Shown piece after piece: positions 2,731 to 30,015 of a DNA stretch of 64,000 nucleotides. Location of the stretch: contig JAWOCD010000004.1 of assembly GCA_046483985.1 (NCBI GenBank), positions 1 through 64,000 of the forward strand. The letters run 5' to 3'. The notes beneath the pieces were generated by a model. It was not told the origin of the DNA and searched no databases. It saw only the letters and a list, made by a program, of their open reading frames with translations. The DNA comes from Promethearchaeia archaeon. Its GTDB lineage: Archaea; Asgardarchaeota; Lokiarchaeia; Sigyniarchaeales; SOKP01. Both the position numbers and the translations under genes were made by a program. Each line of letters opens with the position of its first letter. The stretch's first letter is position 1.

Positions 2731-2830
2731 TATAAGCTGCAAATAATAAATCATATTTGTATCAATCTTAAATGGGTTTAAGATGAATAAATAATGAGCA
2801 AGAATGTTTAATCAAAAATAAAGTAAATTC

Positions 2831-3075
2831 ATGGATGAGCAAAAGAACGTGGCGTTGATTTATATTGGTGCCGAGATAAATGAGACTGTGAGCGGTATTT
2901 TAACTCATGTGTGGCAACTTGCGAATAATCGGTTAGGAGAGGCGTTCGGTTATAAGTTTAAATTACTGCACTGCCCCGAATGCGGAGGTTCTCTGGATAA
3001 TATGGAAAAAAGCTCAATACAATAAGATGTAAGTATTGTAATACAGAATTTAAAAAATCTGCATTAAGTCAATAA
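2831..3075 (+). pseudogene. Small Zn-ribbon protein frameshifted in an A6 run
   Basis: HCPECGGSL in the ORF 2831..3025; partner knuckle IRCKYC continues in the -1 frame after A6 at 3006-3011. Confidence 0.5.
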
Positions 3076-3093
3076 ATTAATTGAATAAGAATT

Positions 3094-3609
3094 ATGATTG
3101 GATATCTTATCTTTGGTGGGATTATCTTTCTCGGCCTGTTTCTCTTACTTTATTTTGGAATTAAGAAGATAAAGGCCTATCTCAAAAAGAAATATATCCC
3201 CGAAAAGGCGACCTCGTTTAAATGTCTTGACGGGCATGTGGTGCGCTCGAAGGGGGAATTAATTATCGATAACCATCTCCACCGGCTCGGCTTGGAGCAT
3301 GAATATGAGCAAACCATCCGAGTTCGCGGCCGCAAGATCAAATATGACTGGTATCTGCCGAATCATGATATTTATATTGAATATTGGGGATATTATGGGA
3401 AGGATTATATGAAAAGGAAAGAGGAGAAAATTGACCTTTATGAAAAAGGCGGCCATACTCTAATATCGATCGAAAGCGTGATGTTTACGGACATTTATCC
3501 TCAGCTCGAGGAAAAGCTTGAACCATATACGCCCTTGGAAGATAAAACGAGAGAGAAGTTACATTGCCCCAATTGCGGAGAGGAATTAGATAATCGGTTT
3601 CGGAATTAA
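3094..3609 (+). CDS. Membrane-anchored PD-(D/E)XK nuclease-like protein with C-terminal Zn knuckle
   Basis: N-terminal TM; VRSKGELIIDN..L...EYE; YDWYLP..IYIEYWG; CPNCG. Confidence 0.65.
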   Translation: MIGYLIFGGIIFLGLFLLLYFGIKKIKAYLKKKYIPEKATSFKCLDGHVVRSKGELIIDNHLHRLGLEHEYEQTIRVRGRKIKYDWYLPNHDIYIEYWGYYGKDYMKRKEEKIDLYEKGGHTLISIESVMFTDIYPQLEEKLEPYTPLEDKTREKLHCPNCGEELDNRFRN

Positions 3610-3720
3610 TTTCCAATCAGAAAAAATAATTTCTTTAGCCAATTTAAAAGAATTTCTAAGGGCCTTATCTCATGATGTAAAAAATGAAACTGATGAAAAT
3701 AAAATTCAAGGACTAATTTC

Positions 3721-3876
3721 AGAATTAGTACAACAATCTATACAGTTGATGGAATAGGCGAAAAGACAGCTAAAAAGATAATAGAGCATTTTGGAAATTT
3801 AGAAATTGTTTCAAATGTCGGGGAAAAAGCAGCAGAAAAGATATATAACGATGTTGTATATCGATTCTTGGTCTAA
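3721..3876 (+). pseudogene. Helix-hairpin-helix (XPF/ERCC4/UvrC-type) remnant
   Basis: Startless frame TVDGIGEKTAKKIIEHFGNLEIVSNVGEKAAEKIY. Confidence 0.55.
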
Positions 3877-4130
3877 TAGGAACAACGAATCTTGAGGAAT
3901 CGTCTGTAAGATTCGGGGTGTGAGGGAAATACTTTTAATCTCAGTCATTATCTGGGGAATAGCGATATTGCCATAACTCTTATTTGGGCAAGAATTGTCT
4001 TTGGGTTCCGATTTTCTATACAAGTGAAATTTAAATTTGATCTGAGAAAATAATAAATATTTAAATCAATTAATAACAAATATAAGATTACTAAGAATTT
4101 ATACAAAAGAACATTTATAGGGAAAATCAA

Positions 4131-4787
4131 ATGGAGAACTTCAAAAATCAAATTAAAGACTATCTATGGATTATTCCGATAATTGGTGGAGTTTTTTTTA
4201 TAATTTCAACAATAAGCCCAATTGGCTCAATAACAATGTTTATCACAACAAAGATCTACATGACAGGATATTATTCTTCTCCAATGGATACTGGAACTAT
4301 GGAACAACTTATTCCAATCGGTCCAATAACTATGGTTATACTACTTGGAATAGGAAGCTTATTAATCATTACCGGAGTTTTTTTTAAACAGGGAAAAATT
4401 GACCTCGAATTCAATAAAATGCAGTCTTTATGGTTAATACTCGCTATAGGCGGGATGGTCATGATAATTATTTTTATCTCCTTGATAACCACAGAGCTTC
4501 AGCAAGATTTAGGGGGATATGGACAAGTATCTACTTGGGATATAATAGATCCAAGATTTGGAATAATCGGTCCTTTTATAGGGGGCGCTATAGTGGTTGT
4601 TGGATTTATTCTTTCGAAAATGCAAATAATTAATTCTCAAGAACAACTTCAAGGGTCTCAACATCAGAATCTACCCAAACCTCACCAAAAATCTTCATCC
4701 GCTTCAAGTTCTAATATTTGTCCCACATGTAAAAATAGAATAGATTCTAATAGTAAATTCTGCGATCAATGCGGTACCGAAATATAA
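4131..4787 (+). CDS. 4-TM membrane protein with C-terminal zinc ribbon
   Basis: Four hydrophobic helices; CPTC...FCDQCG. Confidence 0.75.
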   Translation: MENFKNQIKDYLWIIPIIGGVFFIISTISPIGSITMFITTKIYMTGYYSSPMDTGTMEQLIPIGPITMVILLGIGSLLIITGVFFKQGKIDLEFNKMQSLWLILAIGGMVMIIIFISLITTELQQDLGGYGQVSTWDIIDPRFGIIGPFIGGAIVVVGFILSKMQIINSQEQLQGSQHQNLPKPHQKSSSASSSNICPTCKNRIDSNSKFCDQCGTEI

Positions 4788-6929: not shown

Positions 6930-8594
6930 ATTAATATTAACCCTGTTGAATGAATTTAATTCTTTAACTTTTTTCCGAAGCACAATCAAGGTGACAAAAA
7001 TCCCAATAACCCCAATAAGAAGAGTTGTAATATTGAGTGCATTGATAAAAATTCGTTCCCCCGAAGTATCTATCACAATTTTCTCACGGTTATTACAAGA
7101 TCTCGGGGTTATATTGATATTCTCATAGACTACATCGGCATGCCTTATATAGATGCCATAGGCGGGTACATCACCGAACATCCAGACTTCTGGACCTGCA
7201 TCTGGAGCCTCAAGAACAGTGGAGGGAAATAAAAGCCGTTCTGCAGAGTCAAGATATTCCACAGTGAAATTATTAAGGGATATATTAGTAGCTTTAAGTA
7301 CAGAATAGTCCCAACTGTTCCATTTCCACAATTGGGCGCCGCTGATGATGCTCGGCAGCTGGCAATCATAGGAAAAAAGATTTGAGACATTTACATTATC
7401 AATCTGGCTCATGAGGTCCTTATCATCATATTTATTGCGGTTTCCGACACGAATAAATAGCGGTGCCAGCACCCCGTCCATGGAGATATTATTCACCTTA
7501 ATATCCCGTACTTCACTTCCATCTACGGATTCAATTGCTATCCCAGAAATCCCCCCAGGATAAAACTCTGTCGTAATGATCTCGCTATCAACAAAAGTTA
7601 TATTGGTAATGTCTGAATAAGTCTCCGTACCTATCTTAAAGCTGTTACATGTTGATCTTATACGGGCATTTCGGACGGTTATATTAGCCATAGGAACCGA
7701 GGAGTCTAATTTGGGATTCTTAAGCGCGATTCCATCATCCGCCGTTGAAATGAGTACATTATTTATATTCACATTACTAGTTGCAACAATGTCTATCCCG
7801 TCTACATTTCCACCTCTGATATTATTATGTAAAACCGTGTCTTTAACGGAAATTGTATTGGATAATTCAAAAGTCAAGGTCCAGCCGGGAGAATTATTAA
7901 CCAGCAAATTTCTGATACGAATATTCTGACTCTCCTTGAATAAAATAAATGGAGACGGTCTGTTTTCTTTTTTTTCTCGTTTTGCGAGGAAATGGTTTAA
8001 TTGCAGCATCCTGACATCGGAAACTCTAAGGTTAGATTTTAGTGGTTTTAATATCGGGTTATTCCAGAAGTATTCTCCTTCGCCCATTATCTTGCCGCCG
8101 TTGCCCTCAACAGTTACATTACGAATATTTTCGCCAATAATAAAATGCTTGGGGGAATAATCGGCCCTACTTCGACTCCCAATGAGATTTCCTTCTATTC
8201 TTAATGTGACATTGCTCTTTAGCTCGATGGTACCAGAGACATAATTCCCTGCTGGGATGAGCGCCACTCCATCATTAAGGCTTGCATTCTTTATTGCAGC
8301 GTTGATGGCTTCGGTATTCTTTTGAATGATATCTTCATTTATCTCATCTTTATCGTAATATGCATCTATTGCGCCATAATCTGTAATATTGAAAATTGAT
8401 CCTGACTCAAAATCTCCGTAAGGATTATCTGTTAGGTACCTTGTGGTATTTATCTCCTCGAAATCGCTCTCAAACAAAGGAATAGGTTCCTTTTCATAGA
8501 ATTTTATGAATCTATCATTTAACAGATACGTGAATGGCACTGTAATAATAATAAGTATAAAAAATATGAGACAATATTGAAAAGTCCTTTTCAT
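6921..8594 (-). CDS. Glycoside hydrolase family 28 (polygalacturonase-like), TM at both ends
   Basis: NVDGID, ADDGIALK, KIGTE motifs; beta-helix Asn/Ile periodicity. Confidence 0.85.
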   Translation of the reverse strand: MKRTFQYCLIFFILIIITVPFTYLLNDRFIKFYEKEPIPLFESDFEEINTTRYLTDNPYGDFESGSIFNITDYGAIDAYYDKDEINEDIIQKNTEAINAAIKNASLNDGVALIPAGNYVSGTIELKSNVTLRIEGNLIGSRSRADYSPKHFIIGENIRNVTVEGNGGKIMGEGEYFWNNPILKPLKSNLRVSDVRMLQLNHFLAKREKKENRPSPFILFKESQNIRIRNLLVNNSPGWTLTFELSNTISVKDTVLHNNIRGGNVDGIDIVATSNVNINNVLISTADDGIALKNPKLDSSVPMANITVRNARIRSTCNSFKIGTETYSDITNITFVDSEIITTEFYPGGISGIAIESVDGSEVRDIKVNNISMDGVLAPLFIRVGNRNKYDDKDLMSQIDNVNVSNLFSYDCQLPSIISGAQLWKWNSWDYSVLKATNISLNNFTVEYLDSAERLLFPSTVLEAPDAGPEVWMFGDVPAYGIYIRHADVVYENINITPRSCNNREKIVIDTSGERIFINALNITTLLIGVIGIFVTLIVLRKKVKELNSFNRVNINID

Positions 8595-8684
8595 TATTTT
8601 GCTTGACCCATCCTTTAAGTATTATATAAGTTCTTTTAGAATCCTCTGTTACTTTTTAGTTCAGCTTGAGTTATGTATCTTGAG

Positions 8685-11600
8685 TTATGTATAGCAAGTT
8701 CTATTTATAATGATTTTTTTCATCTCATCCGAGAGTTCGTTGAAGTATGCGCAATATCCCGCAATACGTACCAATAGGTTCGGGTATTTTTCGGGATTTT
8801 CATAGGCATCCTCTAATATTTGACGGTTTACGATGTTAGGCTGCAGTTGCATCCCCCCGTTTGTAAGAAATGTCTTAAAGATCGTTGCCAGATTTTCTGT
8901 GCCCTTGTTGTCTTGAAATAATGCGGAATCAACTGTGAGCGTAACAGTTGTCCCGTTCTCAGCATGTTCAGTGAAGTCTACATCAGAAATAGAATTTAGT
9001 GTCGATAACAGATCAGACTGCTCCATTCCGTAGTGAGGAGTAATGCTATTGGCTAAAGGAACACCTTTTAATCTTCCTGAAGGTAAGGCGGGAGTCCTTT
9101 TACCATACGCTGTATTCACAGCTAAGGCATAATAGCCAGCGGAATATCTGCCATTACGGGGACAATTCGGCACCGAATCCAAGGCATTATTGTACATCTC
9201 CATTACTTTATTCATCCACGCTGTAGCCTCTTTTGATGAATCTTCGCCAAATTTCGGTACAGAAAGTAACGCAGATCTGACTTTCTCATATTTTCCTTGG
9301 AAATTGTGCTCTATTGCCTTAATTATCTCATCCATAGTAAAGAGATGTTTCTTGTATACTACCTCATTAATAGCGTGGAACGAATCCGCGACATCAGTGA
9401 CCCCGACTGCCTGAATACCGCAGCTGTTGAACTCAGCACCGCCTTCATAAACGTCCTTTCCGGTTTCGAGACAGTTCTCAAAAAGCGTAGAGGCAAGGGG
9501 TGTCGGAAAATATTTTCGAAGTTTACTTTCAATTTTTTGGTGCTCGGTGAGAATGGATTTTGTCACCTCGTTTAACCTCTCTTGATATCGCTCAAGCAGT
9601 TCTTCCATGCTGGAAGGTGGATTATACTTATAAAGTCCTTTTTTGTAATTATGCCGTTTAATAAGTTTATTACAAATCCTTCTTATAAACCTTGATATTC
9701 GATTTTTTCCTTTAAAGAGAAATTTCATGAAATTAGTGACTAATATTAAAAAATGTTCACTGAGGCCAGGGTTCCACAAATCATGCTCTTGACCCTCGAG
9801 TGCTTGTAAAAGCGGAAATGCTAAATTTACATTTGCGCAATCAGTATTGCCAAAATGGTCATTTGAGGCAGTGGGTTCAACACAACCTACAATAGAATAA
9901 TCTCTTGCGTTTTCCAGTGAGGTGGGATAATGTTTTTGGAGAGCTTCAATATAATTTTCATCGCTGAACAATTGCGGTAAGGGACATCCGCTGATAAAGA
10001 TATCCGCAATCTTATTCAGATATTCAGGCGGGCTATTCTCATGGATACGCGCTCCCATATCGATCGAATACGATTGTAATTTACATGCATCCAAAAACAT
10101 ATAAGTTAGTTCGTTAGTGGCGTCATTCCCTTCTTTATCTACGCCTCCAAATGTCAAAGCTTGATCTGAAGAGCTGGTTTCCACTGTCTTATACGCTGAA
10201 ACAAACGAGTTATCGCCGTCTGTGGTAAGAACGAGCTCATCCATTTTAAGTACAAATAGCGCAATAAGTTCTTTTGCCTCTTCGTAGGTGATTCTTCCCT
10301 CTTCTTTATCCTTTTTGTAATAGGGATACAGCATCTGATCGAGTCGTCCAAAGGATATAGCGTTTTCATATGATTCCATACAAAGTGCTATATGGATGAA
10401 AGTAATACATTGAAGGGCTTCATGAAACGTTCGGGCGGGATATTTGGGGACATGGTCGCAAATCTTGGCCATTTTTTCCAGTTCCTTACGACGTTCTGGA
10501 TCCCTTTCTTTTTTACTTAATTTCGATAAGAGGTTCGCATATCTCTGACCAAACGTCTCTAATCCCTTGAGCGCAACTATAGTGGCCTCATAGAAATTTT
10601 GCTTTTTCTTATCCTCAGAATGTTCTTGCTGCAGTGATTTAATTTTCTCTCTGAGGCCAGACGTACCTAATTTAAGAATGGGATCGTAGTTGGCAACGAA
10701 ATGTGCAATTGCCAAAAGATTATTATTTAACCCGTACTTCATATCAGATGTTCGGGAAATTGCAGCAATGATACCTGAAATTTTAGGATAAACTTTTGCC
10801 ATAAGACTACGAAAAGCCCACCAAGGAAATATCTTTAAATAACAATATAACTTATCTTTCAAGGAAATTTGATACGGCATCGGAGTTTGACGATCGATGG
10901 CATAAAGAAATGAAAACCCAAGCGTACCGTGATATTCCTCCCAGAGTTGGCTTCCCTTTCTTTCCGGAGTAAAATTACCCACAAGTAATTCTTGCGGATA
11001 TATATCGATCTTTTTATTTTCTAACACATGGGAAAGGCGTTCAGCTCTATGAATATAAGGAGACTTTTCAAAACCGTGTTCCTTATAATACTCTGTTTTT
11101 AGTCTTCCGCTCTCAATGCAAAGATGCCTTGGTGCATCTCTAACGTCTTTTTGAATTCGCTTGACACGCGGTGTAAAGGAGGGCTCATATCTTGAATCCA
11201 TATTCAGATCAACGCTGTCGGCTTGAATCCCATAATCCCGGAATAATTTTGCTCCCTTTTCTAATGAAGCTTGGCTTTGTTCGGGCGAAATGCCTAACAA
11301 GGCAATATCCAAACCAAGACGTTCGGCTTTATCCTCGTACATATTATGGTATTTCATTAATTCAATTGAATCATAATCGATAGAGTGAAGAAACTCCGCG
11401 GTGGCTTGTATGTTTTCTTCGATGTCAGTATAACCCGGCACCATCACCATACGGAATTTAACATTGGCCCCTAACTCAAGTAATTTACTGATATTCTCGT
11501 GAATTACGGTGTAATCTTGTTTTGTATATTTAATATGAAGGCCTTCATTGCCGACCACCTTGAGATCAACGAGAAAAAGATCGATATAGGGGGCGGCTTT

Positions 11601-19996: not shown

Positions 19997-21019
19997 TTAT
20001 TGATATCTTTCTAAGAGTTCTTCAGGCGTAAATACCCCGTCTTCGGTAATAATACCGGCGACTAAATTAAACGGCGTAATATCAAAAGCATAGTTCAAAC
20101 ACTCAACGCCATCGGGGACGATCTTGACTTTTCCTAAGACGTTACTAACTTCTGAACTATCACGCTGTTCAATCTCTACATCATCAACGGTGTCCTCCAG
20201 TGAGAGCGTGGAACTCGGGGCAGCTACATAAAAAGGAATATCATTATCGTTTGCCGCAAGAGCGACAAGATATGTCCCAATTTTATTAAACACAGCATCT
20301 GAACTAACCCGATCTGTACCCACAATTACCTTATCTATTTTTCCAAGACGCATCAGTAAGCCAGATGAATTATCAACGATCACGTTAACGGGGATCTCGT
20401 CGTAATGCAGCTCATAGGCAGTTAACCGGGCACCTTGGAGGCGAGGTCTGGTTTCATCGGCAATCACGGTAACGTCTTTTCCTTGCGCCACCGCGGAACG
20501 TACAGGGGCTAAGGCGGTCCCGTATTGGACGGTTGCTAAGGATCCCGCATTACAATGCGTAAGGACGGTATCCCCATCCTCTAATAACTCTGCTCCATGC
20601 TTCCCGATGCCTTTATTCACGTCAATATCTTCTTGGGCCATTCTTTTTGCTTCCTCAATTACGTCCTCCGTAATTGCTCCTGGATCCTTCTCGGATTCTT
20701 TGATTATCTTCCAAATTCGCCTTACAGCCCAAAAGAGATTGGATGCGGTGGGTCTGGTGCTTTTAATGACCTCAGCAGCCTCTTCCATTTTTTGTAGAAA
20801 TTCGTCCTTTGGCAAGGTCTTGTATTCCAAAGCCGCTTGAGCCATTCCCATCGCTGCAGCAACACCAATTGCCGGCGCACCTCGAATATTCATAACTTTT
20901 ATGGAGTTCGCCACATCCCGATAATCATCAAACTCCAAAAATTTCAGCTTGTGCGGTAAGATGGTCTGATCTACCATTTTGACCTTATTATCTTCAGTCC
21001 ATTCAATTGAGGGGATCAT
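19997..21019 (-). CDS. mtnA: S-methyl-5-thioribose-1-phosphate isomerase (eIF2B-like family)
   Basis: IRGAPAIG, TRPTA.NL, LTHCNAGSLAT, ETRPRLQGARLT, NKIGTY, FDITP. Confidence 0.92.
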   Translation of the reverse strand: MIPSIEWTEDNKVKMVDQTILPHKLKFLEFDDYRDVANSIKVMNIRGAPAIGVAAAMGMAQAALEYKTLPKDEFLQKMEEAAEVIKSTRPTASNLFWAVRRIWKIIKESEKDPGAITEDVIEEAKRMAQEDIDVNKGIGKHGAELLEDGDTVLTHCNAGSLATVQYGTALAPVRSAVAQGKDVTVIADETRPRLQGARLTAYELHYDEIPVNVIVDNSSGLLMRLGKIDKVIVGTDRVSSDAVFNKIGTYLVALAANDNDIPFYVAAPSSTLSLEDTVDDVEIEQRDSSEVSNVLGKVKIVPDGVECLNYAFDITPFNLVAGIITEDGVFTPEELLERYQ

Positions 21020-21275
21020 TGTACTTAAAAAAATGTTTGAACCTTTAAAATACTTGATTTTGTCCTTCGATTATTATTCATCTGAATGATCATTCAATTT
21101 CGTAATACTTTTTTCTAAAGGAATAATATCCCGCGAGGTGATTTAAGGAAAGGTCCTTTAATTTCTGTTCATACTGGCTCCTAATCTATTCATATTATCC
21201 TCTATAAGCCAAGAGTTTAAATATAATCTTACGTCAATACTATATAATATAATCAAAACAAATTGCTGATCGAAA

Positions 21276-21404
21276 ATGAAAATCAAAAAGAAAGAAAAAA
21301 CTGTTGTAGCAGCTTGTAAGTGCGGGGGCGGATGCGTCTCTACCAGTTGTAAATGTGGAGGAGGCTGTGCCTCTACGAGCTGCAAATGCGGTTGCGGCTG
21401 TTAG
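21276..21404 (+). CDS. 42-aa Cys-rich repeat peptide (candidate RiPP precursor or metallothionein); absent from the ORF track
   Basis: Translated by hand: MKIKKKEKTVVAACKCGGGCVSTSCKCGGGCASTSCKCGCGC*; repeats differ mostly at synonymous sites; TATA-like TTTAAATA near 21216; U-tract after the stop. Confidence 0.8.
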   Translation: MKIKKKEKTVVAACKCGGGCVSTSCKCGGGCASTSCKCGCGC

Positions 21405-21461
21405 GTCGCAAAAATTTAATAACTCTTTTTTATTCTTTTTTCTATTATTTTTCATTAATAT

Positions 21462-21746
21462 GTGCCCAAGATTATCAAAAAGGAATATGATCGTTATCAT
21501 AAGATCTTAGGAAAAACTAAAATTTTCAAGGAGATTATTAATTGTGTGGAAGATTTAAATGAAACATTTGACTCCATTGAGGCTATAATTTCAGAAGATT
21601 TAGAATCCGGAAGATCATTTATTAATAAGGTTTTTACCAAGGAACCGCAAGAAACCGTTAGCTTTAACCAAGGAACCATAGAAGAACTGTTTGAACTTTT
21701 GAAGTTAGCTCGAAGTAGTTTAAAAGAGCTCGAGCAAAACCATTAA
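21462..21746 (+). CDS. Hypothetical protein
   Basis: 94-aa ORF with typical composition. Confidence 0.55.
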   Translation: MPKIIKKEYDRYHKILGKTKIFKEIINCVEDLNETFDSIEAIISEDLESGRSFINKVFTKEPQETVSFNQGTIEELFELLKLARSSLKELEQNH

Positions 21747-21820
21747 ATAGGACCCTCTTTATATTATATTAACTACATTACACAAAAAGAAAGGTAATAA
21801 GGAGGTAAAACCTATATTAC

Positions 21821-23326
21821 ATGATTTTCATGGAAAAAAAAACAAAACGAATCGCATTAGGCATCATCTTAACAGTAATAATAACCTTTAGTTCTATCGG
21901 TGTCTTTACAATTCTCTTTTTCTGGAATAATTACAGTATTCCTCTGGATGCACAAGAAAGTGTAAATTCGGTCGATCCTGATTATATATTTGACACGGGA
22001 GATCTTACAGAATCCGGTCAAACAGAGGAATATAAGGCGTACAATGAATGGACAACTTCACTAGAAGGAAAAGTTTTTGCCGTTCAAGGCGGCCATGATC
22101 GAGAACATCGAAGAGGTGACCCATATGGTACCGGATTTTTTACTGAATGTAACTTTGATTCTCCCACCGGTGTGCTAAAAATGGGGAATAATGTATTTAT
22201 ATTGATCTCTGAAGACCGATATTATCATCAAGAAGAAAATATATGGATGCATCATATAACTGACCAATTGCATCAATGGATTAGCGAAAAATTGGCAGAA
22301 TATGCAGTAAATGACACCAATATTTTCATTTTCGAGCATTGTCCCATAAAAAATACCGTTGCGTGGTCCGATGGAGAATGGTGGGCAACGGGCAATGATC
22401 CTTGGGAAAAAGTGTCAAATCGCTGGTTGGATCTTATGGGAGAATATGATGACCATATTGTCGCCCATGTTTCTGGACATATACATACTCATTATGCGTG
22501 GAAAGATACACCAAACGATACGGAAAAATACGGCTATGGAGATGGGGATGACGGCATTGAAGATGTAGGTCATTTTGTGAATGGGAGTGATAAAGAGGGG
22601 TTACCTAAGGTTTATTTTCTTAATCCACAAGCCCTCTGCTATACCCATGGAAGTGCATGGACCGAATTTGAAACTGCGGCTATTTATTATTATGATATGG
22701 AGCAGAATAAGGACCAGTTTACCATCAAGACACGCGATATTCACACGAAAAAGGATGTCGATTCGTATACGGTTAAAACCAATTTTCCTATAGATCTGGG
22801 AGACGGACAAATAAACTTTATCGAATCTAAGACCACCATTGTCTCAAAAAGTGAGACTAAAATAGGAAAAGAGGATTGGTTATTGGTCTCTAAGGGAAGT
22901 ATTGTCACTTTTCACAAAAAGTGGAATCTTCCCGTTGATAATTTCAGTATTGAATTTGATCCAGAAGACGTCCATTATACTATAGAAAGTATTGAAGAAG
23001 GAGACAACGAGGTTTTTATGGAGATCAAGTTTGAAGAGCAAGCAATCATTCGAGACGTGAATATCTTACCCTTCAAAAAGAATACAACCGAAAATAATGC
23101 GTCAATAGAGAACAAAAGAATGGTGTTTCTCACCGACATTCATTTTGATTCTCCCAAGAACGGACATCAATTTGGAGGGGTCCAAGTAGATGTATTGGCT
23201 CATTTTGGCATAATTGGGAAATTTCTTGAAAAGCAAAGTCCCATCGTGTTCATTATAGTAGGAAGTTTCACAGTATTACTGTTGCTTGCGGTCGGAGTCT
23301 ATATTTGGCAGAAAAAAAAGAAATAG
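21821..23326 (+). CDS. Calcineurin-like metallophosphoesterase, circularly permuted motif order, TM at both termini
   Basis: TGDLTESG, GGHD, FEH, SGHIH in the N-terminal half; MVFLTDIHF near the C-terminus. Confidence 0.75.
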   Translation: MIFMEKKTKRIALGIILTVIITFSSIGVFTILFFWNNYSIPLDAQESVNSVDPDYIFDTGDLTESGQTEEYKAYNEWTTSLEGKVFAVQGGHDREHRRGDPYGTGFFTECNFDSPTGVLKMGNNVFILISEDRYYHQEENIWMHHITDQLHQWISEKLAEYAVNDTNIFIFEHCPIKNTVAWSDGEWWATGNDPWEKVSNRWLDLMGEYDDHIVAHVSGHIHTHYAWKDTPNDTEKYGYGDGDDGIEDVGHFVNGSDKEGLPKVYFLNPQALCYTHGSAWTEFETAAIYYYDMEQNKDQFTIKTRDIHTKKDVDSYTVKTNFPIDLGDGQINFIESKTTIVSKSETKIGKEDWLLVSKGSIVTFHKKWNLPVDNFSIEFDPEDVHYTIESIEEGDNEVFMEIKFEEQAIIRDVNILPFKKNTTENNASIENKRMVFLTDIHFDSPKNGHQFGGVQVDVLAHFGIIGKFLEKQSPIVFIIVGSFTVLLLLAVGVYIWQKKKK

Positions 23327-23488
23327 ATCAACAAAAAAATCAAGGCAAAGGTTTTTTTCAATCTAAGAGGGCTTAAGTCCTTTTCTAATTATTTGAATCA
23401 CCATTTATCGATAGAAATCATTTCATCGATTTTCGTCGGTCTTAAAATGGCAATTTTCAAAAATAAATTATTCTTATATGAAGTTAAT

Positions 23489-25999
23489 ATGAAAAAAGTT
23501 AATTGGGAAGATTTAAATGCTTTATATAATGTAATTCCTTTAGTTAAACAATTTACTGATAAAAATCCAATAAAAAAATACTCCGCAAATCTTGATAAAA
23601 TTGAGAAAAAAATTAAAAATCTGAGAGAGTCATTAAAAACAGAAAAAAAATCGGATATAATTGAGAAACGATTTAAAAAGATACTGAAAAGATTAAAGAA
23701 GATTATACACAAAGAGGACTTTCCCCCCACCATTTTTATTGTTGGCGCTCACGGCGGTGTCATTGTTAAAGACGTTCCATTTTGTGAGTTTGATTCTCCA
23801 GAGTATGCAATGCATTCTCTTTTTGAAAAGATGAAATTAGCAATAAAAAATGAAATACCTTATAACTTAGAAATAGCAGTATGCTGTTTAGAATGGGTAC
23901 GAAATAACCATTCTAATAACATCTCAACTTTTTTGGACTTATTTCACAAGGGTATGTTTGAAATCATCAATCCCACCTATTCCCAACCATATAATTTACT
24001 TATCGGTGCTGAATCAAATATCAAACAATTTGAATATGGGATCCAAGTTTTGAAGGAATTAGGGCTAAAAGCGAATATCTATTACTGTACCGAAAGCTCT
24101 TTACATCCACAAATCCCCCAAATCCTCAAAGGGTTTGGAATAGAATATGCATCCCTTAGGGTTCGGCTTTTAGGAACAAATCCAACATCTCATTCTGGAA
24201 ATATCAACTGGAAGGGTATAGATAACACAAAAATCAATACACTATCCGATCAACCCGGACTTTACAATGGAGAATATTTTCACGGAACCTTTTTTCAAGA
24301 GATTCCAAACTTGCTATTCCAAGCAGTTTCACGCCCTATCTTGAACAATATTATTTATTCTTCTATAGAAGATTTTGTTATGCCCTTACCGTTTCAAGAG
24401 GATATATGGAGAGTCCATAAATATGCTGATCTTTTTGGGGAATTTTTTTTAAGTACTAAGGTATTTCAGCAATTAGAGAGGAGTGGTACATATAAATATT
24501 CCCGGGACGATTTTTTCTTGGGAGATAAACTTTTTAAGCTTTCCAATTTACTCCTCCAGAATAAAAAAGCAGAAATCTCTCTTATATCAGCAGAAATTTT
24601 TAATGTATTGGCTGGTTTTTTCGGGTTACAAGCAGAAATTCATCTTTTCGAAAAACTATGGAGAGATTTGCTTTTAGCTCAATCGCATGATGCCTACGCC
24701 GTTCCATATATTCGGACGGGAGATTATTCTCGGTTTCAATTAAGTAAAGAGGAAATAAAAAAACTTTCCTTAAAGGATTCGGAGATTTCAATATCAGCGC
24801 TAAGCATTCAGATTTGTAAGGAAATTCAAAAGAAATGTAATCAGTTTATTTCTAAAGGGCTTGAAAATATGACATCTAAAGATAATAAGAGAAAAAGGGT
24901 AAAAAATCAAGGAATTGTTATTTTTAATCCAAGTCCTTATTCCAGAAATGATATTGTTGAAATTTCCTTACCAAGACAAAATATCTCCAAAAGAATTTTA
25001 ACAAGGAAAGAACAAGAATTATTACATATTAAACAAGGTTCAAAAATCAAGTGTATTGTAGATCTACCGCCTTTTGGGTTTAAATTTTTAAAATTGAGCA
25101 ATAGAAAGTACGAACAATCGAACATTCAAGCTGAATATCTTTATGAAGTAGAGATCTCAAAAAATAAAGAAAGAATCCAATTCAAATATAAGGATAACCA
25201 TATCTTTAATATAGGATTTCGTGCCCCAGAATCTATTAGAATTGAGTCTTACGAAAAAGTAAGTACTGATATCGAAAAAAAAGATGTCATAACAGGTTTT
25301 AACCAAGAGGAAAAAGAAATTTTTTCTATGGAGATAATCCAATATTCCAAAATTAATCGATTAGAATTTATACTGGATAACGGAGACTTGGTTGAACTCC
25401 TGATTGAACCAATCATAAATATTCAAAAAACGTTGATTAATTATCCTTTCGGCATAGAAGAAACGAAAAGAAACCAAATAAAAACTCTAGATTTTATGTT
25501 ACTTAAAGGGAAGGATAAGGGGCTAATTTTTATTCAAAAAAATTGCCCTAGGTTTAAAATAAATCACCAGAATTACCATATTACAAATCAAGTTGAAAAA
25601 GGGAGACAGTTTGAATTTTCTATTTCTTTTCTGAAGGATCCAAGTATTAAGACTGCCAGAAGGTATGTCAATTGTTACTTTTATAGATCTTTCGGAGTCT
25701 ATACCACTTTAGGATTAAAAGAGTTCCCTAAAAATGATTTTTTCTCAATGGATAATGCAAGTACTTTTGTAAATTTATGGAGGAGAGGAGAAAAAATATA
25801 TCTCAGGGTGTTTAACCCTTCTGATAGAATGACCAAATTAAAAATATGTGGAAAATTGATGAGGGATCAAGTTGAAATTCTCGACTTTAATCATCGTACA
25901 ATTAAGAACAGTAATCCGAAAATTCTTGAACTAAAACCATGGAAAATAATGACTCTACGAGTTAATGGAGGAGAGGAGAAAAATGCCTACAGCGAATAA
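23489..25999 (+). CDS. Divergent GH38 (alpha-mannosidase)-like glycoside hydrolase
   Basis: YSQPYNLLIGAESNIKQ, LHPQIPQILKGFGI, WKGID, QSHDA, IFNPSPYSR, LKPWKIMTL; ATG at 23489 preferred over the track start. Confidence 0.65.
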   Translation: MKKVNWEDLNALYNVIPLVKQFTDKNPIKKYSANLDKIEKKIKNLRESLKTEKKSDIIEKRFKKILKRLKKIIHKEDFPPTIFIVGAHGGVIVKDVPFCEFDSPEYAMHSLFEKMKLAIKNEIPYNLEIAVCCLEWVRNNHSNNISTFLDLFHKGMFEIINPTYSQPYNLLIGAESNIKQFEYGIQVLKELGLKANIYYCTESSLHPQIPQILKGFGIEYASLRVRLLGTNPTSHSGNINWKGIDNTKINTLSDQPGLYNGEYFHGTFFQEIPNLLFQAVSRPILNNIIYSSIEDFVMPLPFQEDIWRVHKYADLFGEFFLSTKVFQQLERSGTYKYSRDDFFLGDKLFKLSNLLLQNKKAEISLISAEIFNVLAGFFGLQAEIHLFEKLWRDLLLAQSHDAYAVPYIRTGDYSRFQLSKEEIKKLSLKDSEISISALSIQICKEIQKKCNQFISKGLENMTSKDNKRKRVKNQGIVIFNPSPYSRNDIVEISLPRQNISKRILTRKEQELLHIKQGSKIKCIVDLPPFGFKFLKLSNRKYEQSNIQAEYLYEVEISKNKERIQFKYKDNHIFNIGFRAPESIRIESYEKVSTDIEKKDVITGFNQEEKEIFSMEIIQYSKINRLEFILDNGDLVELLIEPIINIQKTLINYPFGIEETKRNQIKTLDFMLLKGKDKGLIFIQKNCPRFKINHQNYHITNQVEKGRQFEFSISFLKDPSIKTARRYVNCYFYRSFGVYTTLGLKEFPKNDFFSMDNASTFVNLWRRGEKIYLRVFNPSDRMTKLKICGKLMRDQVEILDFNHRTIKNSNPKILELKPWKIMTLRVNGGEEKNAYSE

Positions 26000-26354
26000 A
26001 ATTCATCTTAGTTTTGAAATTGGTAAACTTAAAAATCAAGTAATTGAAGCGGGAATAACCAAATCCTTTAGGAAAGACCGTATATTTGAAGAGGTAATTA
26101 AAGAGATTTTAGAGTTTTATCACGGAAAGAAGGAGTTCGAAAAGAAAATTGACTTAAACAAAGTAGAAGTATTTGTAAACCGACCCCCCGAAAAATCTCA
26201 TAAACCTACTGAAGAGAATTTGGACAAATATTGTCCATTAGCAAGAAAAGTGAGGATTCCCTCCCATAAAAAGATGAAGAATAAGAACTTAGAATTGTCC
26301 GTAGAAAAAGTGGTAAAGACATCTAAAATTGGAGTTTTTACAATTTATTACTAA
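25965..26354 (+). CDS. Hypothetical protein
   Basis: 129-aa ORF overlapping the upstream gene end. Confidence 0.55.
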   Translation: MEERRKMPTANKIHLSFEIGKLKNQVIEAGITKSFRKDRIFEEVIKEILEFYHGKKEFEKKIDLNKVEVFVNRPPEKSHKPTEENLDKYCPLARKVRIPSHKKMKNKNLELSVEKVVKTSKIGVFTIYY

Positions 26355-26356
26355 AC

Positions 26357-27205
26357 TCATCCTTCAATCCATTTCTCAACCCTTGGAATCACCGGTTGTT
26401 TCAGAATTTTTCGCAGCCATTCACGGCGAGTTTTTATCTTATCAGGGACTATACTCCCAGGATGATCCCCAATGGGTGTAATTAAATGCCCTTCTATCCA
26501 TCTTCGTTTGAGGATACTATTCCAAAAAACCGATTTTAACACCATTTGTAAGGACTGATGAAGGGGCGCATTTGCCGAATATGGGCTACACTTCCCGGTT
26601 TTCATGGCAGCGACAAGATCATCGGGGTCTTCACTATTTACAGCTACTTGCGTGAAGGCGCACCCAAAAGTTTCCGGGCTATGTGCATCAGAACCTGCGA
26701 TCCTCCTTCCCGTGGGAAATTGACTATAAACCTTATGAGTCTTAATATTTTGATGATAAATTGTCCCGTTTGTCCATTCAATCCCGTCAATGTCCAATCG
26801 CTTTACCACTTCTGGAACCCATAAGCCTTGGTGTGGATTTGAATATGGATGAGCAAGGAAAATTGCGCAGCCTTGTTCCCTCAGATATTCAATTGCGATA
26901 TCTGGATCAATAGTATCCCTTCGATAGGGCCATTCATTTACGCCATAGGCAAGAATATGGTTATAATTTGTAGAAACTTCTATTGCAGATATACACGGTA
27001 AGTTTGCTTCCTTGGCCTCTTTTTTGATCCTTCCCGCTCCTTCCACAGTATCGTGTGCCATCGCGCAGACATAGTTAAAACCTTTCTTTTTAGTACATTT
27101 TATAAAATCTCGAGGGGAAAGTAATCCGTCATGCAAATCAAAATAACTGTGAATATGGGCATCAAAAACTGCCCCAAATTCTTCAATACTGTACTTTATA
27201 GCCAT
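26357..27205 (-). CDS. PHP-domain metallohydrolase
   Basis: DAHIHS, AHD, HILAYG, LAHP, GSDAH. Confidence 0.85.
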   Translation of the reverse strand: MAIKYSIEEFGAVFDAHIHSYFDLHDGLLSPRDFIKCTKKKGFNYVCAMAHDTVEGAGRIKKEAKEANLPCISAIEVSTNYNHILAYGVNEWPYRRDTIDPDIAIEYLREQGCAIFLAHPYSNPHQGLWVPEVVKRLDIDGIEWTNGTIYHQNIKTHKVYSQFPTGRRIAGSDAHSPETFGCAFTQVAVNSEDPDDLVAAMKTGKCSPYSANAPLHQSLQMVLKSVFWNSILKRRWIEGHLITPIGDHPGSIVPDKIKTRREWLRKILKQPVIPRVEKWIEG

Positions 27206-27303
27206 GTAAGTCTGATAAAAATAATTATTTCTCTAATATAAATTACGGGAAAAAGTTTCTAAATTGATCTTGAATAGAAAACCAACAATAAAAATATTTG
27301 CGT

Positions 27304-27351
27304 ACAAAATTCAACCCCGATCTAAAAGACGGGGACCTCTTTTGCTATAAG
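27304..27351 (-). mobile_element. Degenerate IS200/IS605-type hairpin element, copy 3
   Basis: Minus strand TTTAA|CTTATAGCAAAAGAGGTCCCCGTCTTTTAGATCGGGGTTGAATTTTGT. Confidence 0.55.
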
Positions 27352-27448
27352 TTAAAAAGTATAGTCACTCCTTTTCACCTTAATTCATGCTAAAGTCCTT
27401 TTTTATTATTAGCTGAACATTTTTATTCCCAGAATTCTATTCTAACAT

Positions 27449-28723
27449 ATGCATAACAAGTTCATCCCCATCATTCCGAACCATATTGTTTTAAGAAGAT
27501 ATGAAAATATAAATATTTACGACATAAAGTTGGATGAGTCCTATTTAATTGATGAAGAAGCTTATTCAGTTCTTAAATTAATAAATGGGCGAAACACCGT
27601 GGATGAAATTTTAAAAAAGTACCCCATGGATAAAAAAGAAGAGATTAGAGAAGCTTTAGCAACGTTTTCGGATTTAAAAATCATTTCGTTTTTGCCCGAA
27701 AAACCCAAAGATTCCAAAGAGATTAACACAGAACATTTAAATCTTCCCGAGAAAAATCCTTTAAAACAACCTTATTTAAAAAATTTAATGGTTAATATTA
27801 CCGAAAGATGCAATTTAAAATGCAAACATTGCTATATAACAAATAAAGACCCGGTAGATATGGAACTTCAAAAACTAAAAAAGATTATAAAGGATTTTTA
27901 CGAATTACAGGGAATTCGCTTAATTTTAACCGGCGGTGAGCCCTTTATTTATAAGCATTTGAAGGAACTCCTTAGTTATTTAAAAGAATTCGCACTTCAA
28001 AAGGTACTACTCTCTAATGGAACACTTATTACGCAAAATAAAGAATTAATAGATTTATTGAAAGATAATAATGTAGAGATTTTTATAAGCATGGATGGTT
28101 TAGAAGAATCACATAATGATTTTCGAGACGCTAACTGTTTTCAAGACACAATAGACGGAATAAAATTTCTCCTAAGCAATAGCATAAAAACTTCAATCAA
28201 TACAATGGTTCATAAGCAAAATATCGATGAGTTTGAAGAGATGTTTAATTTGATTAATGCATTGGAGGGAAATATAGCAAATTGGTCAATAGATATTCCG
28301 ACGTTCGAAGAAGACATCCCAGAAGGAATAAGAAAAAAGTATGAAGTACCCGGAGAAGAAGGAGGCAAAATCTTAAAACATTATGGGTGGGGCGAAGTAT
28401 ATGAGTCTGAATGTCACAATTTTGCATGTGGTCCAAATTTAATGGCTATAGATGTAAAGGGGATTGTTACGAAGTGCGGATTTTTTTATAGTCGGAATGC
28501 AGGAAATATATTTAAAATCGGGATGGAAAAAGCGTGGAAGCGAATTCAAAAGAACTTGAATTGGACTTTGGATGAATTAAAATGTGAGGATTGTGATTTT
28601 ATTGAAAATTGTCGGGGAGGATGTCGTTATAGAGCATTTAAGCAAACTGGGAACATTCAGGGTATTGACAAGTATAAATGTTATCAATTTGGAAAAATCA
28701 AAAATAATAATAATGTAAAATAA
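27449..28723 (+). CDS. Radical SAM/SPASM protein with N-terminal PqqD-like RRE (peptide maturase type)
   Basis: N-term ~85 aa YLIDEEAYSVLKLINGRNTVDEI; CNLKCKHC; TGGEP; SPASM CG...C...CEDCDFIENCRGGC...C. Confidence 0.85.
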   Translation: MHNKFIPIIPNHIVLRRYENINIYDIKLDESYLIDEEAYSVLKLINGRNTVDEILKKYPMDKKEEIREALATFSDLKIISFLPEKPKDSKEINTEHLNLPEKNPLKQPYLKNLMVNITERCNLKCKHCYITNKDPVDMELQKLKKIIKDFYELQGIRLILTGGEPFIYKHLKELLSYLKEFALQKVLLSNGTLITQNKELIDLLKDNNVEIFISMDGLEESHNDFRDANCFQDTIDGIKFLLSNSIKTSINTMVHKQNIDEFEEMFNLINALEGNIANWSIDIPTFEEDIPEGIRKKYEVPGEEGGKILKHYGWGEVYESECHNFACGPNLMAIDVKGIVTKCGFFYSRNAGNIFKIGMEKAWKRIQKNLNWTLDELKCEDCDFIENCRGGCRYRAFKQTGNIQGIDKYKCYQFGKIKNNNNVK

Positions 28724-28754
28724 TATAATTCTAAAAGAAATAGGTTGATCAAAA

Positions 28755-29000
28755 ATGGTTAAAGAACATGAAATAATCAGAACTGAGGAGGATATCACTC
28801 CTTTAAACCGTAAATTAATTAACACTATCTGCCATAAATGTAATTTCTATGCCGAAGATCAAGAATATTGGGAAAAAGAGTATGAATGTGGAGCTTATAA
28901 ATTAGTTAGGCAAATGGTAAAAGAGAAAATAATCAATATAGATGAAATCGAAGAATTATTCAAGGCAGTGGATCTAAATCCTTCAAGAGACTTAAGGTAA
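28755..29000 (+). CDS. Small Cys-containing protein, probably co-transcribed with the rSAM
   Basis: ICHKCNFY...YECGAY; 31 bp after the rSAM stop. Confidence 0.65.
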   Translation: MVKEHEIIRTEEDITPLNRKLINTICHKCNFYAEDQEYWEKEYECGAYKLVRQMVKEKIINIDEIEELFKAVDLNPSRDLR

Positions 29001-29121: not shown

Positions 29122-30015
29122 ATGATGGCTAAGAATTCTGAAAAATCTCTTCCTTTAAGAACCTTTCCGCTTATTTCTTGTTCTCGACGAACAGATATCC
29201 CTGCATTTTTAATGGAGTGGGTAAAAGAAAAAATAGAGCAAGGATTTGTGGATGTAACAAATCCTTTTAATCGAAACCAGATTACTCGCGTCTCTTTAAA
29301 ACCAGAAGATATAAAATGCTGGTGCTGGTGGAGTAAGAATTATGGACCTTGGATCTGGACATATAAAGCAAATCCTAAACTGTTCAATCAATATAAAGGA
29401 CATTATTTTCAATTTACGATTAATAGCCCTTCAAAGCTTGAGCGAAATCTTAAAATCTCTTTACGGGAACGGTTTTCTCAACTCGAGTGGTTAATAGATC
29501 AGTTTGGAACTACGGCGGTAAATTACCGATTTGATCCAGTTATTCTATACAAAAAGAAAGGAGAGAAAAAAATAAGGAGCAATCTCAGCCATTTTGAGCA
29601 AATTATTAAAAAAGTGAGTTCCTTAGGTCTTGAAGAGATGGTATTTTCCTTTGCAACGCTCTACAATAAGGTAAAAAACCGAATGCCGAAAAGAGGGTTT
29701 AGTCCTATTAAGATCTCCTTAGCGAAAAAGAAAGAAATTTTAGAAAAACTCAAAAGCATATGCGAAAAATATGGCATTCAAATGCGTGCCTGCTGCCAGC
29801 CAAAATTATTAAAAATTGAAGGTATTCAGCAAGCACATTGTATTGACGCACACAAAATCGAAGCAATAATAGGTGAATCTGTTCCGAAAAGAAAAGATAC
29901 TGGACAAAGAGATGCGTGCGGTTGCCATAAATCCAAGGATATCGGAGGGTATACGGGAATCTTCAGATGTAAGCACAATTGCGATTACTGTTATGCAAAT
30001 CCCGCGAGAAAATAA
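29122..30015 (+). CDS. DUF1848 family protein (radical SAM-like)
   Basis: ISCSRRTDIPAF, WSKN, FQFTI, RFDP, C-terminal CGC..SKDIG...CKHNCDYCYAN. Confidence 0.9.
   Translation: MMAKNSEKSLPLRTFPLISCSRRTDIPAFLMEWVKEKIEQGFVDVTNPFNRNQITRVSLKPEDIKCWCWWSKNYGPWIWTYKANPKLFNQYKGHYFQFTINSPSKLERNLKISLRERFSQLEWLIDQFGTTAVNYRFDPVILYKKKGEKKIRSNLSHFEQIIKKVSSLGLEEMVFSFATLYNKVKNRMPKRGFSPIKISLAKKKEILEKLKSICEKYGIQMRACCQPKLLKIEGIQQAHCIDAHKIEAIIGESVPKRKDTGQRDACGCHKSKDIGGYTGIFRCKHNCDYCYANPARK

Follow-up and report, generated by a model that had tools for sequence, protein, structure and literature searches.

The question raised by this locus is whether a cysteine-rich open reading frame (ORF) of 42 codons, at positions 21276-21404 (+) of the DNA analyzed, is a genuine gene and, if so, whether its product is the substrate of a peptide-modifying enzyme or a metal-binding peptide of the metallothionein kind. 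The window, by which we mean the whole analyzed stretch of 64,000 nt, covers positions 1 to 64,000 (forward strand) of the Promethearchaeia archaeon contig JAWOCD010000004.1. A preliminary description made from the sequence had assumed an Asgard host, which is right, the organism being a Promethearchaeota (Loki-type Asgard) MAG. It had also left two readings side by side, a RiPP precursor or a metallothionein; of these, the former gained support, with an RRE/radical SAM/SPASM gene adjacent to the peptide gene in relatives, and the latter gained none, with no family match and no conserved metal-related neighbors.

Sequence and Codon Pattern of the Peptide Gene

The ORF runs from ATG to TAG and encodes MKIKKKEKTVVAACKCGGGCVSTSCKCGGGCASTSCKCGCGC (translation of the window), in exact agreement with the 42-aa peptide, ten cysteines, and tandem CKCGGGCxSTS repeats described before. 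The cysteines occupy residues 14, 16, 20, 25, 27, 31, 36, 38, 40, and 42, such that residues 1-13 contain none and residues 14-42 contain all ten, a layout shared by 15 aligned homologues; the earlier division into a Cys-free leader and a repetitive Cys core is borne out by this, as well as by the conservation of the basic N-terminus. The leader (MKIKKKEKTVVAA; 21276-21314, +) is Lys-rich, while the core (21315-21404, +) reads CKCGGGC-VSTS, CKCGGGC-ASTS, and CKCGCGC and is followed directly by the stop codon, the last Cys being the end of the peptide. The repeat units had been said to differ mainly at third codon positions, and a codon comparison upholds this, with 8 synonymous and 1 non-synonymous codon differences between units 1 and 2 (11 codons each), 5 and 1 between units 3 and 1, and 3 and 1 between units 3 and 2.

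The GC content of the core is 57.5%, against a window mean of 34.9% and 23-30% in the intergenic flanks, and a protein search of the window's own genome found the gene in a single copy. Two antisense ORFs (21158-21385 and 21240-21500) were considered as the gene instead and dismissed because selection acts on the + frame.

Promoter, Start Context, and Terminator

An archaeal TATA box, TTTAAATA (21216-21223, +), preceded by a BRE-like purine-rich stretch, lies 60 nt ahead of the peptide ATG in the window, and the box is found about 50-60 nt 5′ of the ATG in most of 17 homologous loci. The TATA-like box mentioned earlier was given without coordinates; a second TATA-like stretch (21240-21253) showed no conservation across homologues. 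Four nucleotides ahead of the ATG is TGATC (21267-21271, +), a putative ribosome-binding motif suggested by its recurrence, as most homologues have a TTGAT/TGATC-like motif some 5-12 nt 5′ of the ATG. Downstream, two T6 runs (21426-21431 and 21436-21441, +) make up an archaeal oligo-T terminator, which accounts for the U-rich terminator noted before, and T-runs are kept 15-35 nt past the stop codon in all 17 of the 17 homologues. A scan for sigma-70 promoters and hairpin terminators, uninformative for an archaeal host, returned no hairpin terminator at the peptide gene, the expected outcome for archaea. Among sequencing runs matching window positions 20000-29000, there was no RNA run and a single DNA run, a freshwater sediment metagenome (0.22 of words).

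Homologues and Purifying Selection

A protein search among 40 relatives returned clear homologues in 11 of the 24 genomes of the same family, and a profile built from 15 homologues found the peptide in 26 of 400 genomes of the phylum; the search for conserved homologues across Asgard genomes that the preliminary description proposed was thus positive. The distribution is patchy, even within genera. Homologues have a leader of 13-15 residues with the pattern M-K-I/V-x-K-K-x-K, followed by one to three C-K-C-G-x-x-C units separated by spacers of 0-4 aa. In the 15 aligned homologues, M1, K6, and K8 of the leader are invariant and K5 nearly so, and C-K-C-G is invariant in every unit of the aligned Asgard homologues. 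Some homologues carry Asp at unit position 5 or 6, most do not, and those with one unit have only three Cys in 20-21 aa. All end exactly at the last Cys, with the sole exception of one encoded on a metagenome contig (L083), which has an extra C-terminal Leu.

Homologue pairs of equal length gave a pS of 0.34-1.04 and a pN of 0-0.27 (pN/pS 0.0-0.38). The peptide genes at loci L031 and L004 differ by 14 synonymous and 0 non-synonymous changes, the close pair L043/L045 by three changes only, and the window peptide compared with five homologues has a pN/pS of 0.22-0.29. The protein-level selection claimed from the repeat units is therefore seen among homologues also, at synonymous sites near saturation. 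Given homologues in many genomes and a pN/pS of 0.0-0.38 at such near-saturated sites, the ORF did not arise by chance; it is a genuine conserved gene under purifying selection, with its own conserved promoter and terminator.

Six clusters of the peptide are present among 5.8 billion public proteins, two of them labeled "hypothetical protein" in Promethearchaeota MAGs, and the ESM Atlas gave no named look-alike cluster. Neither Pfam (E ≤ 1) nor NCBIfam (E ≤ 10) held a match for the peptide, SCIFF and other Cys-rich radical SAM target families included, a weak negative given that short low-complexity peptides are hard for HMMER; among the papers searched, none contained the motif string CKCGGGC. 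One genome (G003) contains two near-identical peptide genes, on contigs C124 (2826-2942) and C275 (25128-25244), of which one alone adjoins the enzyme gene described below.

Linkage to a Radical SAM Enzyme

When 20-kb contexts were compared, a radical SAM gene of ~420 aa was present at 10/10 of the first peptide loci while the other neighbors varied, and this enzyme gene was found at every peptide locus with enough flanking DNA. Across a wider set of loci from Promethearchaeota MAGs, its position relative to the peptide gene falls into three classes: nine loci have the peptide 67-775 nt upstream on the enzyme's strand, six have it divergent from the enzyme at a distance of 183-320 nt, and a further six, the window included, have both on one contig but 1.9-10.5 kb from each other. 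The adjacency to rSAM-SPASM genes across Asgard genomes, put forward earlier as a check, is accordingly found in relatives, with the enzyme 6 kb downstream in the window.

Across the 400 genomes used for the peptide search, the enzyme (E ≤ 1e-70) occurs in 34, the peptide in 26, and both in 24; these are plain counts rather than a test, as related genomes are not independent. In the two genomes with the peptide only, it sits at a contig end. The enzyme occurs without a peptide hit in 10 of 374 genomes, of which two carry divergent one-unit peptides (MKITRVSKKKKTAACACKKCC and MKITKVSKKETKAACKCSSDC) and one has the enzyme at a contig start. For the remaining seven, no peptide was found, with none convincing within 0.9 kb in G306-G309 and G169 and none in the flanks examined in G005 and G014; the enzyme orthologues of G306-G309 belong to two further families. 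Peptide and enzyme genes are found linked in several Asgard families despite shuffled gene order, and the varied arrangements are a stronger argument for this linkage than the co-occurrence counts.

In the window, the gap of about 6 kb between peptide and enzyme holds five unrelated ORFs (21462-27205), namely a 94-aa ORF, a 501-aa ORF with a weak Metallophos match, an 868-aa GH57/GH38-like ORF, an ORF of 129 aa, and, on the minus strand, a PHP-domain ORF of 282 aa. These were found at no homologous locus, and we read the segment as having been inserted between a peptide and an enzyme gene that were ancestrally paired. The flanks on either side, with mtnA (19997-21019) upstream and the radical SAM gene, an 81-aa gene, and a DUF1848 gene (29122-30015; Pfam E 9.5e-70) downstream, are syntenic with loci L029, L031, and L032. 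Since the peptide gene is transcribed separately from the enzyme operon, which lies 6 kb away, any action of the enzyme on the peptide would be in trans. A DUF1848 gene with a C-terminal CxxxCxxC-like motif trails the module at five other loci too, either directly or past at least one gene.

The RRE/Radical SAM/SPASM Enzyme

The enzyme gene (27449-28723, +) encodes a 424-aa protein, our proposed maturase, with an RRE domain at about residues 1-100 and a Pfam Radical_SAM match at residues 115-269. The radical SAM motif CxxxCxxC (C121/C125/C128) is invariant in nine orthologues, as are all the SPASM cysteines (C327-x15-C343, C379-x2-C382-x5-C388-x3-C392, and C411), which make up the full 7-Cys pattern under the criterion of C-x9-15-G-x4-C ... 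C-x2-C-x5-C-x3-C ... C plus CxxxCxxC. The Pfam SPASM model was below threshold on this protein, and the SPASM assignment is based on the invariant Cys pattern and on collinearity with CteB and PapB. All NCBIfam matches of the enzyme are of the SPASM class (AhbD, NirJ, StsB, PapB, AlbA, QhpD, and others), and none comes near its cut-off.

Profile comparison found the enzyme collinear over its full length with CteB (enzyme residues 23-417 versus CteB 18-436), SuiB (30-400), and TigE (34-419), and the top Foldseek matches of its AlphaFold model were SuiB, CteB, SkfB, and TigE. Residues 1-100 are the best-modeled part (pLDDT of about 90), folding as strands and then helices, and residues 1-110 alone matched PqqD (5sxy; E 0.0027) with residues 6-56 aligned. 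As read from the sequence, the enzyme shares its domain order and its putative Cys ligands with known peptide maturases, CteB and SuiB among them. Two remoter relatives (L084 and L085; 35-38% identity, beside RtcA and peptidase M28) lack such a peptide and probably belong to a different subfamily. In a Eubacterium sp. MAG (L055:5792-5971), a 59-aa ORF ending in LNCGCGAGGSCASSCVSGCSERG, which is Cys-rich in the manner of SCIFF, lies 30 nt before a distant relative of the enzyme (25% identity), a locus that suggests that the wider enzyme clade may act on Cys-rich peptides.

Predicted Complex of the Leader and the RRE Domain

The peptide was folded together with the enzyme, three 4Fe-4S clusters, and SAM, and scored as the median of three runs, which gave 0.76 against 0.00 for the best of three controls. 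In the calibration, 58 of 80 solved complexes attained the pass mark, as did 2 of 110 mismatched pairs; the alignments and riding ligands of this run differ from those of the calibration. The runs agree in at least 27% of contacts, with a partner pLDDT of at least 39. Confident contacts were placed between peptide residues 1-14 and enzyme residues 29-38 (β3 and the start of the next helix), 65-76 (helix 3), and 313-319, while the core was without confident placement. This predicted interface is the classical leader groove of RRE domains; since leader-RRE complexes of this kind have already been solved, the pass may reflect likeness to them and is no proof of binding.

A Small Three-Cys Protein as the Third Gene

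The third conserved member of the module is a gene (28755-29000, +) for an 81-aa helical protein, located directly 3′ of the enzyme in 23 of 27 loci, sometimes as two copies. Residues C26, C29, F31, and C45 are invariant, and the protein shows a tighter linkage to the enzyme than the peptide does. Pfam and NCBIfam held no family for it. The protein was modeled as a four-helix fold (pLDDT 83), with no fold match in the PDB at E ≤ 0.001, and a fold search of the Atlas returned only its own Promethearchaeota cluster and unnamed bacterial clusters. Among 1.84 billion proteins, the three-Cys protein is represented by 86 clusters, in single and tandem-double forms; short contigs with relatives of it offer little gene context. 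We note that the 81-aa protein could itself be a substrate.

In some Asgard lineages (L077:4495-4978, L080:4464-4987, and L038:7283-7874), the three-Cys gene is duplicated in tandem after the enzyme, and the CxxC spacing there is CxxxC. On a short ENA metagenome contig (L088:82-1305), a tandem-double relative adjoins a SAM-dependent methyltransferase with ArsM-like Cys motifs.

Copies of the Module Outside Asgard

The enzyme encoded in a Nitrospira MAG (VGWX01000009.1) shares 33% identity with the window enzyme over its full length. The Nitrospira module (L046:5375-7311) comprises a tandem-double three-Cys protein (minus strand, divergent), the enzyme, and then, at 61 nt, the 20-aa peptide MTIKKVSKRVSMTCKCKSSC, and its flanks contain two genes for rubrerythrin/ferritin-like proteins, one for a 60-aa ferredoxin, and a further radical SAM/SPASM gene (8370-9353). 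NCBIfam held no family for the Nitrospira peptide or for either three-Cys protein. On the 87.7-kb contig L083 of JGI metagenome 3300038380 (2795-4176), the order is instead the peptide MKIKKVKKVQRYAACKCHKSCL, the three-Cys protein, and the enzyme; this peptide uses a TTG start, has the core ACKCHKSCL, and ends one residue past its last Cys. The neighbors on that contig include CcmF, DsbD, MarR, SHOCT proteins, and a DegP-like protease. The three genes stay together across domains, in three different orders.

Proposed Role of the Peptide and Alternatives

Taking the gene content and its conservation together, we consider that the ORF probably encodes the precursor, i.e., the substrate, of a three-gene module formed by the peptide, the RRE/radical SAM/SPASM enzyme, and the small three-Cys protein. 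The Lys-rich leader (residues 1-13) would dock as a strand on β3/α3 of the enzyme's N-terminal PqqD-like domain, the core would thread into the active site, and 5′-deoxyadenosyl radical chemistry, helped by two auxiliary clusters, would modify the CKCGxxC units one after another. The reduced make-up of the core (Cys, Lys, and Gly) tightly constrains the site of chemistry. The likeliest modification would be a thioether that joins the sulfur of a Cys to a carbon in the invariant Lys or Gly residue, and we give this roughly an even chance; Cys thioethers are favored because Cys, together with one Lys, is the only reactive side chain always present, and the core is without the Asp/Asn/Thr-type acceptors of characterized ranthipeptides, so the chemistry is a guess. 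In sactipeptides, the thioether is made to the alpha carbon and, in ranthipeptides, to the beta or gamma carbon. SPASM maturases also carry out other reactions, including the formation of C-C bonds and epimers, and TigE makes cyclopropylglycine (PMC10878394).

No protease, exporter, or immunity gene was conserved near the enzyme, the only constant genes being those for the peptide and the 81-aa protein. A leader protease and/or an exporter is common, though not universal, in such clusters. As none is conserved nearby, the product may have an intracellular role, or its processing may depend on genes located elsewhere. A less likely possibility, and the most novel, is that the module as a whole (a 20-45-aa peptide with a C-terminal CKCxxxC, the enzyme, and the three-Cys helical protein as a dedicated partner) makes a new intracellular Cys-derived product, either a redox/metal-binding cofactor or an undescribed Lys/Gly cross-link, and that it came to be shared by Asgard and Nitrospira through horizontal transfer.

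A related reading, which we think rather unlikely, is that the module yields a small compound derived from Cys, either a cofactor or a metal binder, for intracellular use in the manner of PqqA/PqqD/PqqE and MftA/MftB/MftC, with the 81-aa protein as carrier or partner. PqqA and MftA are very short precursors with a conserved motif at or near the C-terminus, and the minimal peptides here (20-22 aa, the conserved motif reaching the C-terminus or stopping one residue short of it) are of that size, which, together with the lack of a conserved protease or exporter, is what makes an intracellular product of this type possible. The three systems further share a PqqD-type domain, which the RRE of the present enzyme resembles, and a radical SAM/SPASM enzyme; the three-Cys protein is the only constant third gene, and the Nitrospira copy is found among rubrerythrin-like and ferredoxin genes. 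Unlike in the Pqq and Mft systems, however, the recognition domain is fused to the enzyme, which falls well short of the cut-offs set for the PqqE and MftC models, and further tailoring genes are absent. Precursors with two or three units and spacers of 0-4 aa would better fit iterative cross-linking of one peptide, and a patchy distribution within genera is unusual for a cofactor.

The precursor reading must also be weighed against that of an unmodified metallothionein-like peptide, whose thiolates bind Zn, Cd, or Cu directly and whose link to the radical SAM gene is incidental. The window peptide does look the part, being small, with 24% Cys in CxC and CxxxC spacing, no aromatic residues, no His, and homologues that vary in repeat number, as some metallothioneins do. 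Nine or ten Cys is moreover the count of a metallothionein beta-domain. Against this, one-unit forms carry just three Cys, no metallothionein family in Pfam (E ≤ 1) or NCBIfam (E ≤ 10) matched the peptide, and no metal-homeostasis, metal-transport, or metal-resistance gene is conserved at the peptide loci. A metallothionein would also leave without a role the conserved basic leader, which the complex prediction places on the enzyme RRE, and the linkage to the enzyme outlasts both rearrangements and cross-domain transfer. We consequently regard the metallothionein reading, taken by itself, as very unlikely, while the modified product may bind metals; in the literature, nothing was found on Asgard metallothioneins. 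The metallothionein-like look of a small ORF such as this can mislead.

That the window peptide is an orphaned, disused remnant severed from its enzyme by the 6-kb insertion is highly improbable, because, although five unrelated ORFs now occupy 5.7 kb between the two genes and the last unit, CKCGCGC, is a variant absent from all other homologues, no damage is seen in the ORF or in its TATA box, start context, and terminator, the pN/pS against five homologues is low, the enzyme and 81-aa genes are intact on the same contig, and other genomes likewise keep both genes at a distance of 3-10 kb. In RiPP systems, the precursor gene as a rule has a promoter to itself, and its enzyme is able to work in trans. 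Having kept its promoter, terminator, and selective constraint, the peptide should still serve the enzyme in that way, as a precursor.

Comparison with Known Systems

No curated family in Pfam or NCBIfam covers the peptide, the enzyme subfamily, or the 81-aa protein, and nothing was found on any of the three in the literature. We know of no RiPP product of any Asgard archaeon that has been characterized. Radical SAM RiPP clusters in Asgard genomes have been counted by genome mining only (PMC12144867). The module described here is small, cleanly delimited, and easy to express, with a substrate of 20-42 aa, one enzyme, and one small partner, and it holds in the latter a conserved accessory protein without a known family. 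It also illustrates that the substrates missing for "orphan" radical SAM enzymes can be encoded by short ORFs that gene callers overlook.

Among known systems, CteA/CteB (SCIFF, a ranthipeptide of Clostridia; PDB 5wgg/5why) resembles the module in that its precursor is short, with Cys absent from the leader and abundant in the C-terminal core, and CteB, which is among the top fold matches, has the same order of RRE, radical SAM, and SPASM domains with three clusters. In contrast to CteA, the peptide here has no match to the SCIFF model and its core consists of one to three CKCGxxC heptads without Thr/Asn/Asp-type acceptors; the module further adds the 81-aa three-Cys gene, its hosts are Asgard archaea, and its enzyme is far below the cut-offs of all curated maturase families. 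PapA/PapB (a ranthipeptide system with six repeated CxxxD units; NF047865) is similar in that one enzyme iterates on short Cys units, as proposed here, and the PapB model aligns at enzyme residues 111-404, at 71.6 bits versus a cut-off of 340. The invariant unit residues, however, are Cys, Lys, and Gly rather than the Asp of PapA. In an archaeon, CrpC of Methanococcus voltae is an RRE/radical SAM/SPASM enzyme that installs thioether (ranthionine) cross-links in CrpA, a Cys-rich repeat protein encoded nearby (PMC13692751). CrpA, however, is large, containing CxxQ/D motifs and ten repeats of 17 residues, and CrpC is a member of TIGR04463, whereas the peptides described here have 20-45 aa and a 7-residue unit, and their enzyme falls into no curated family.
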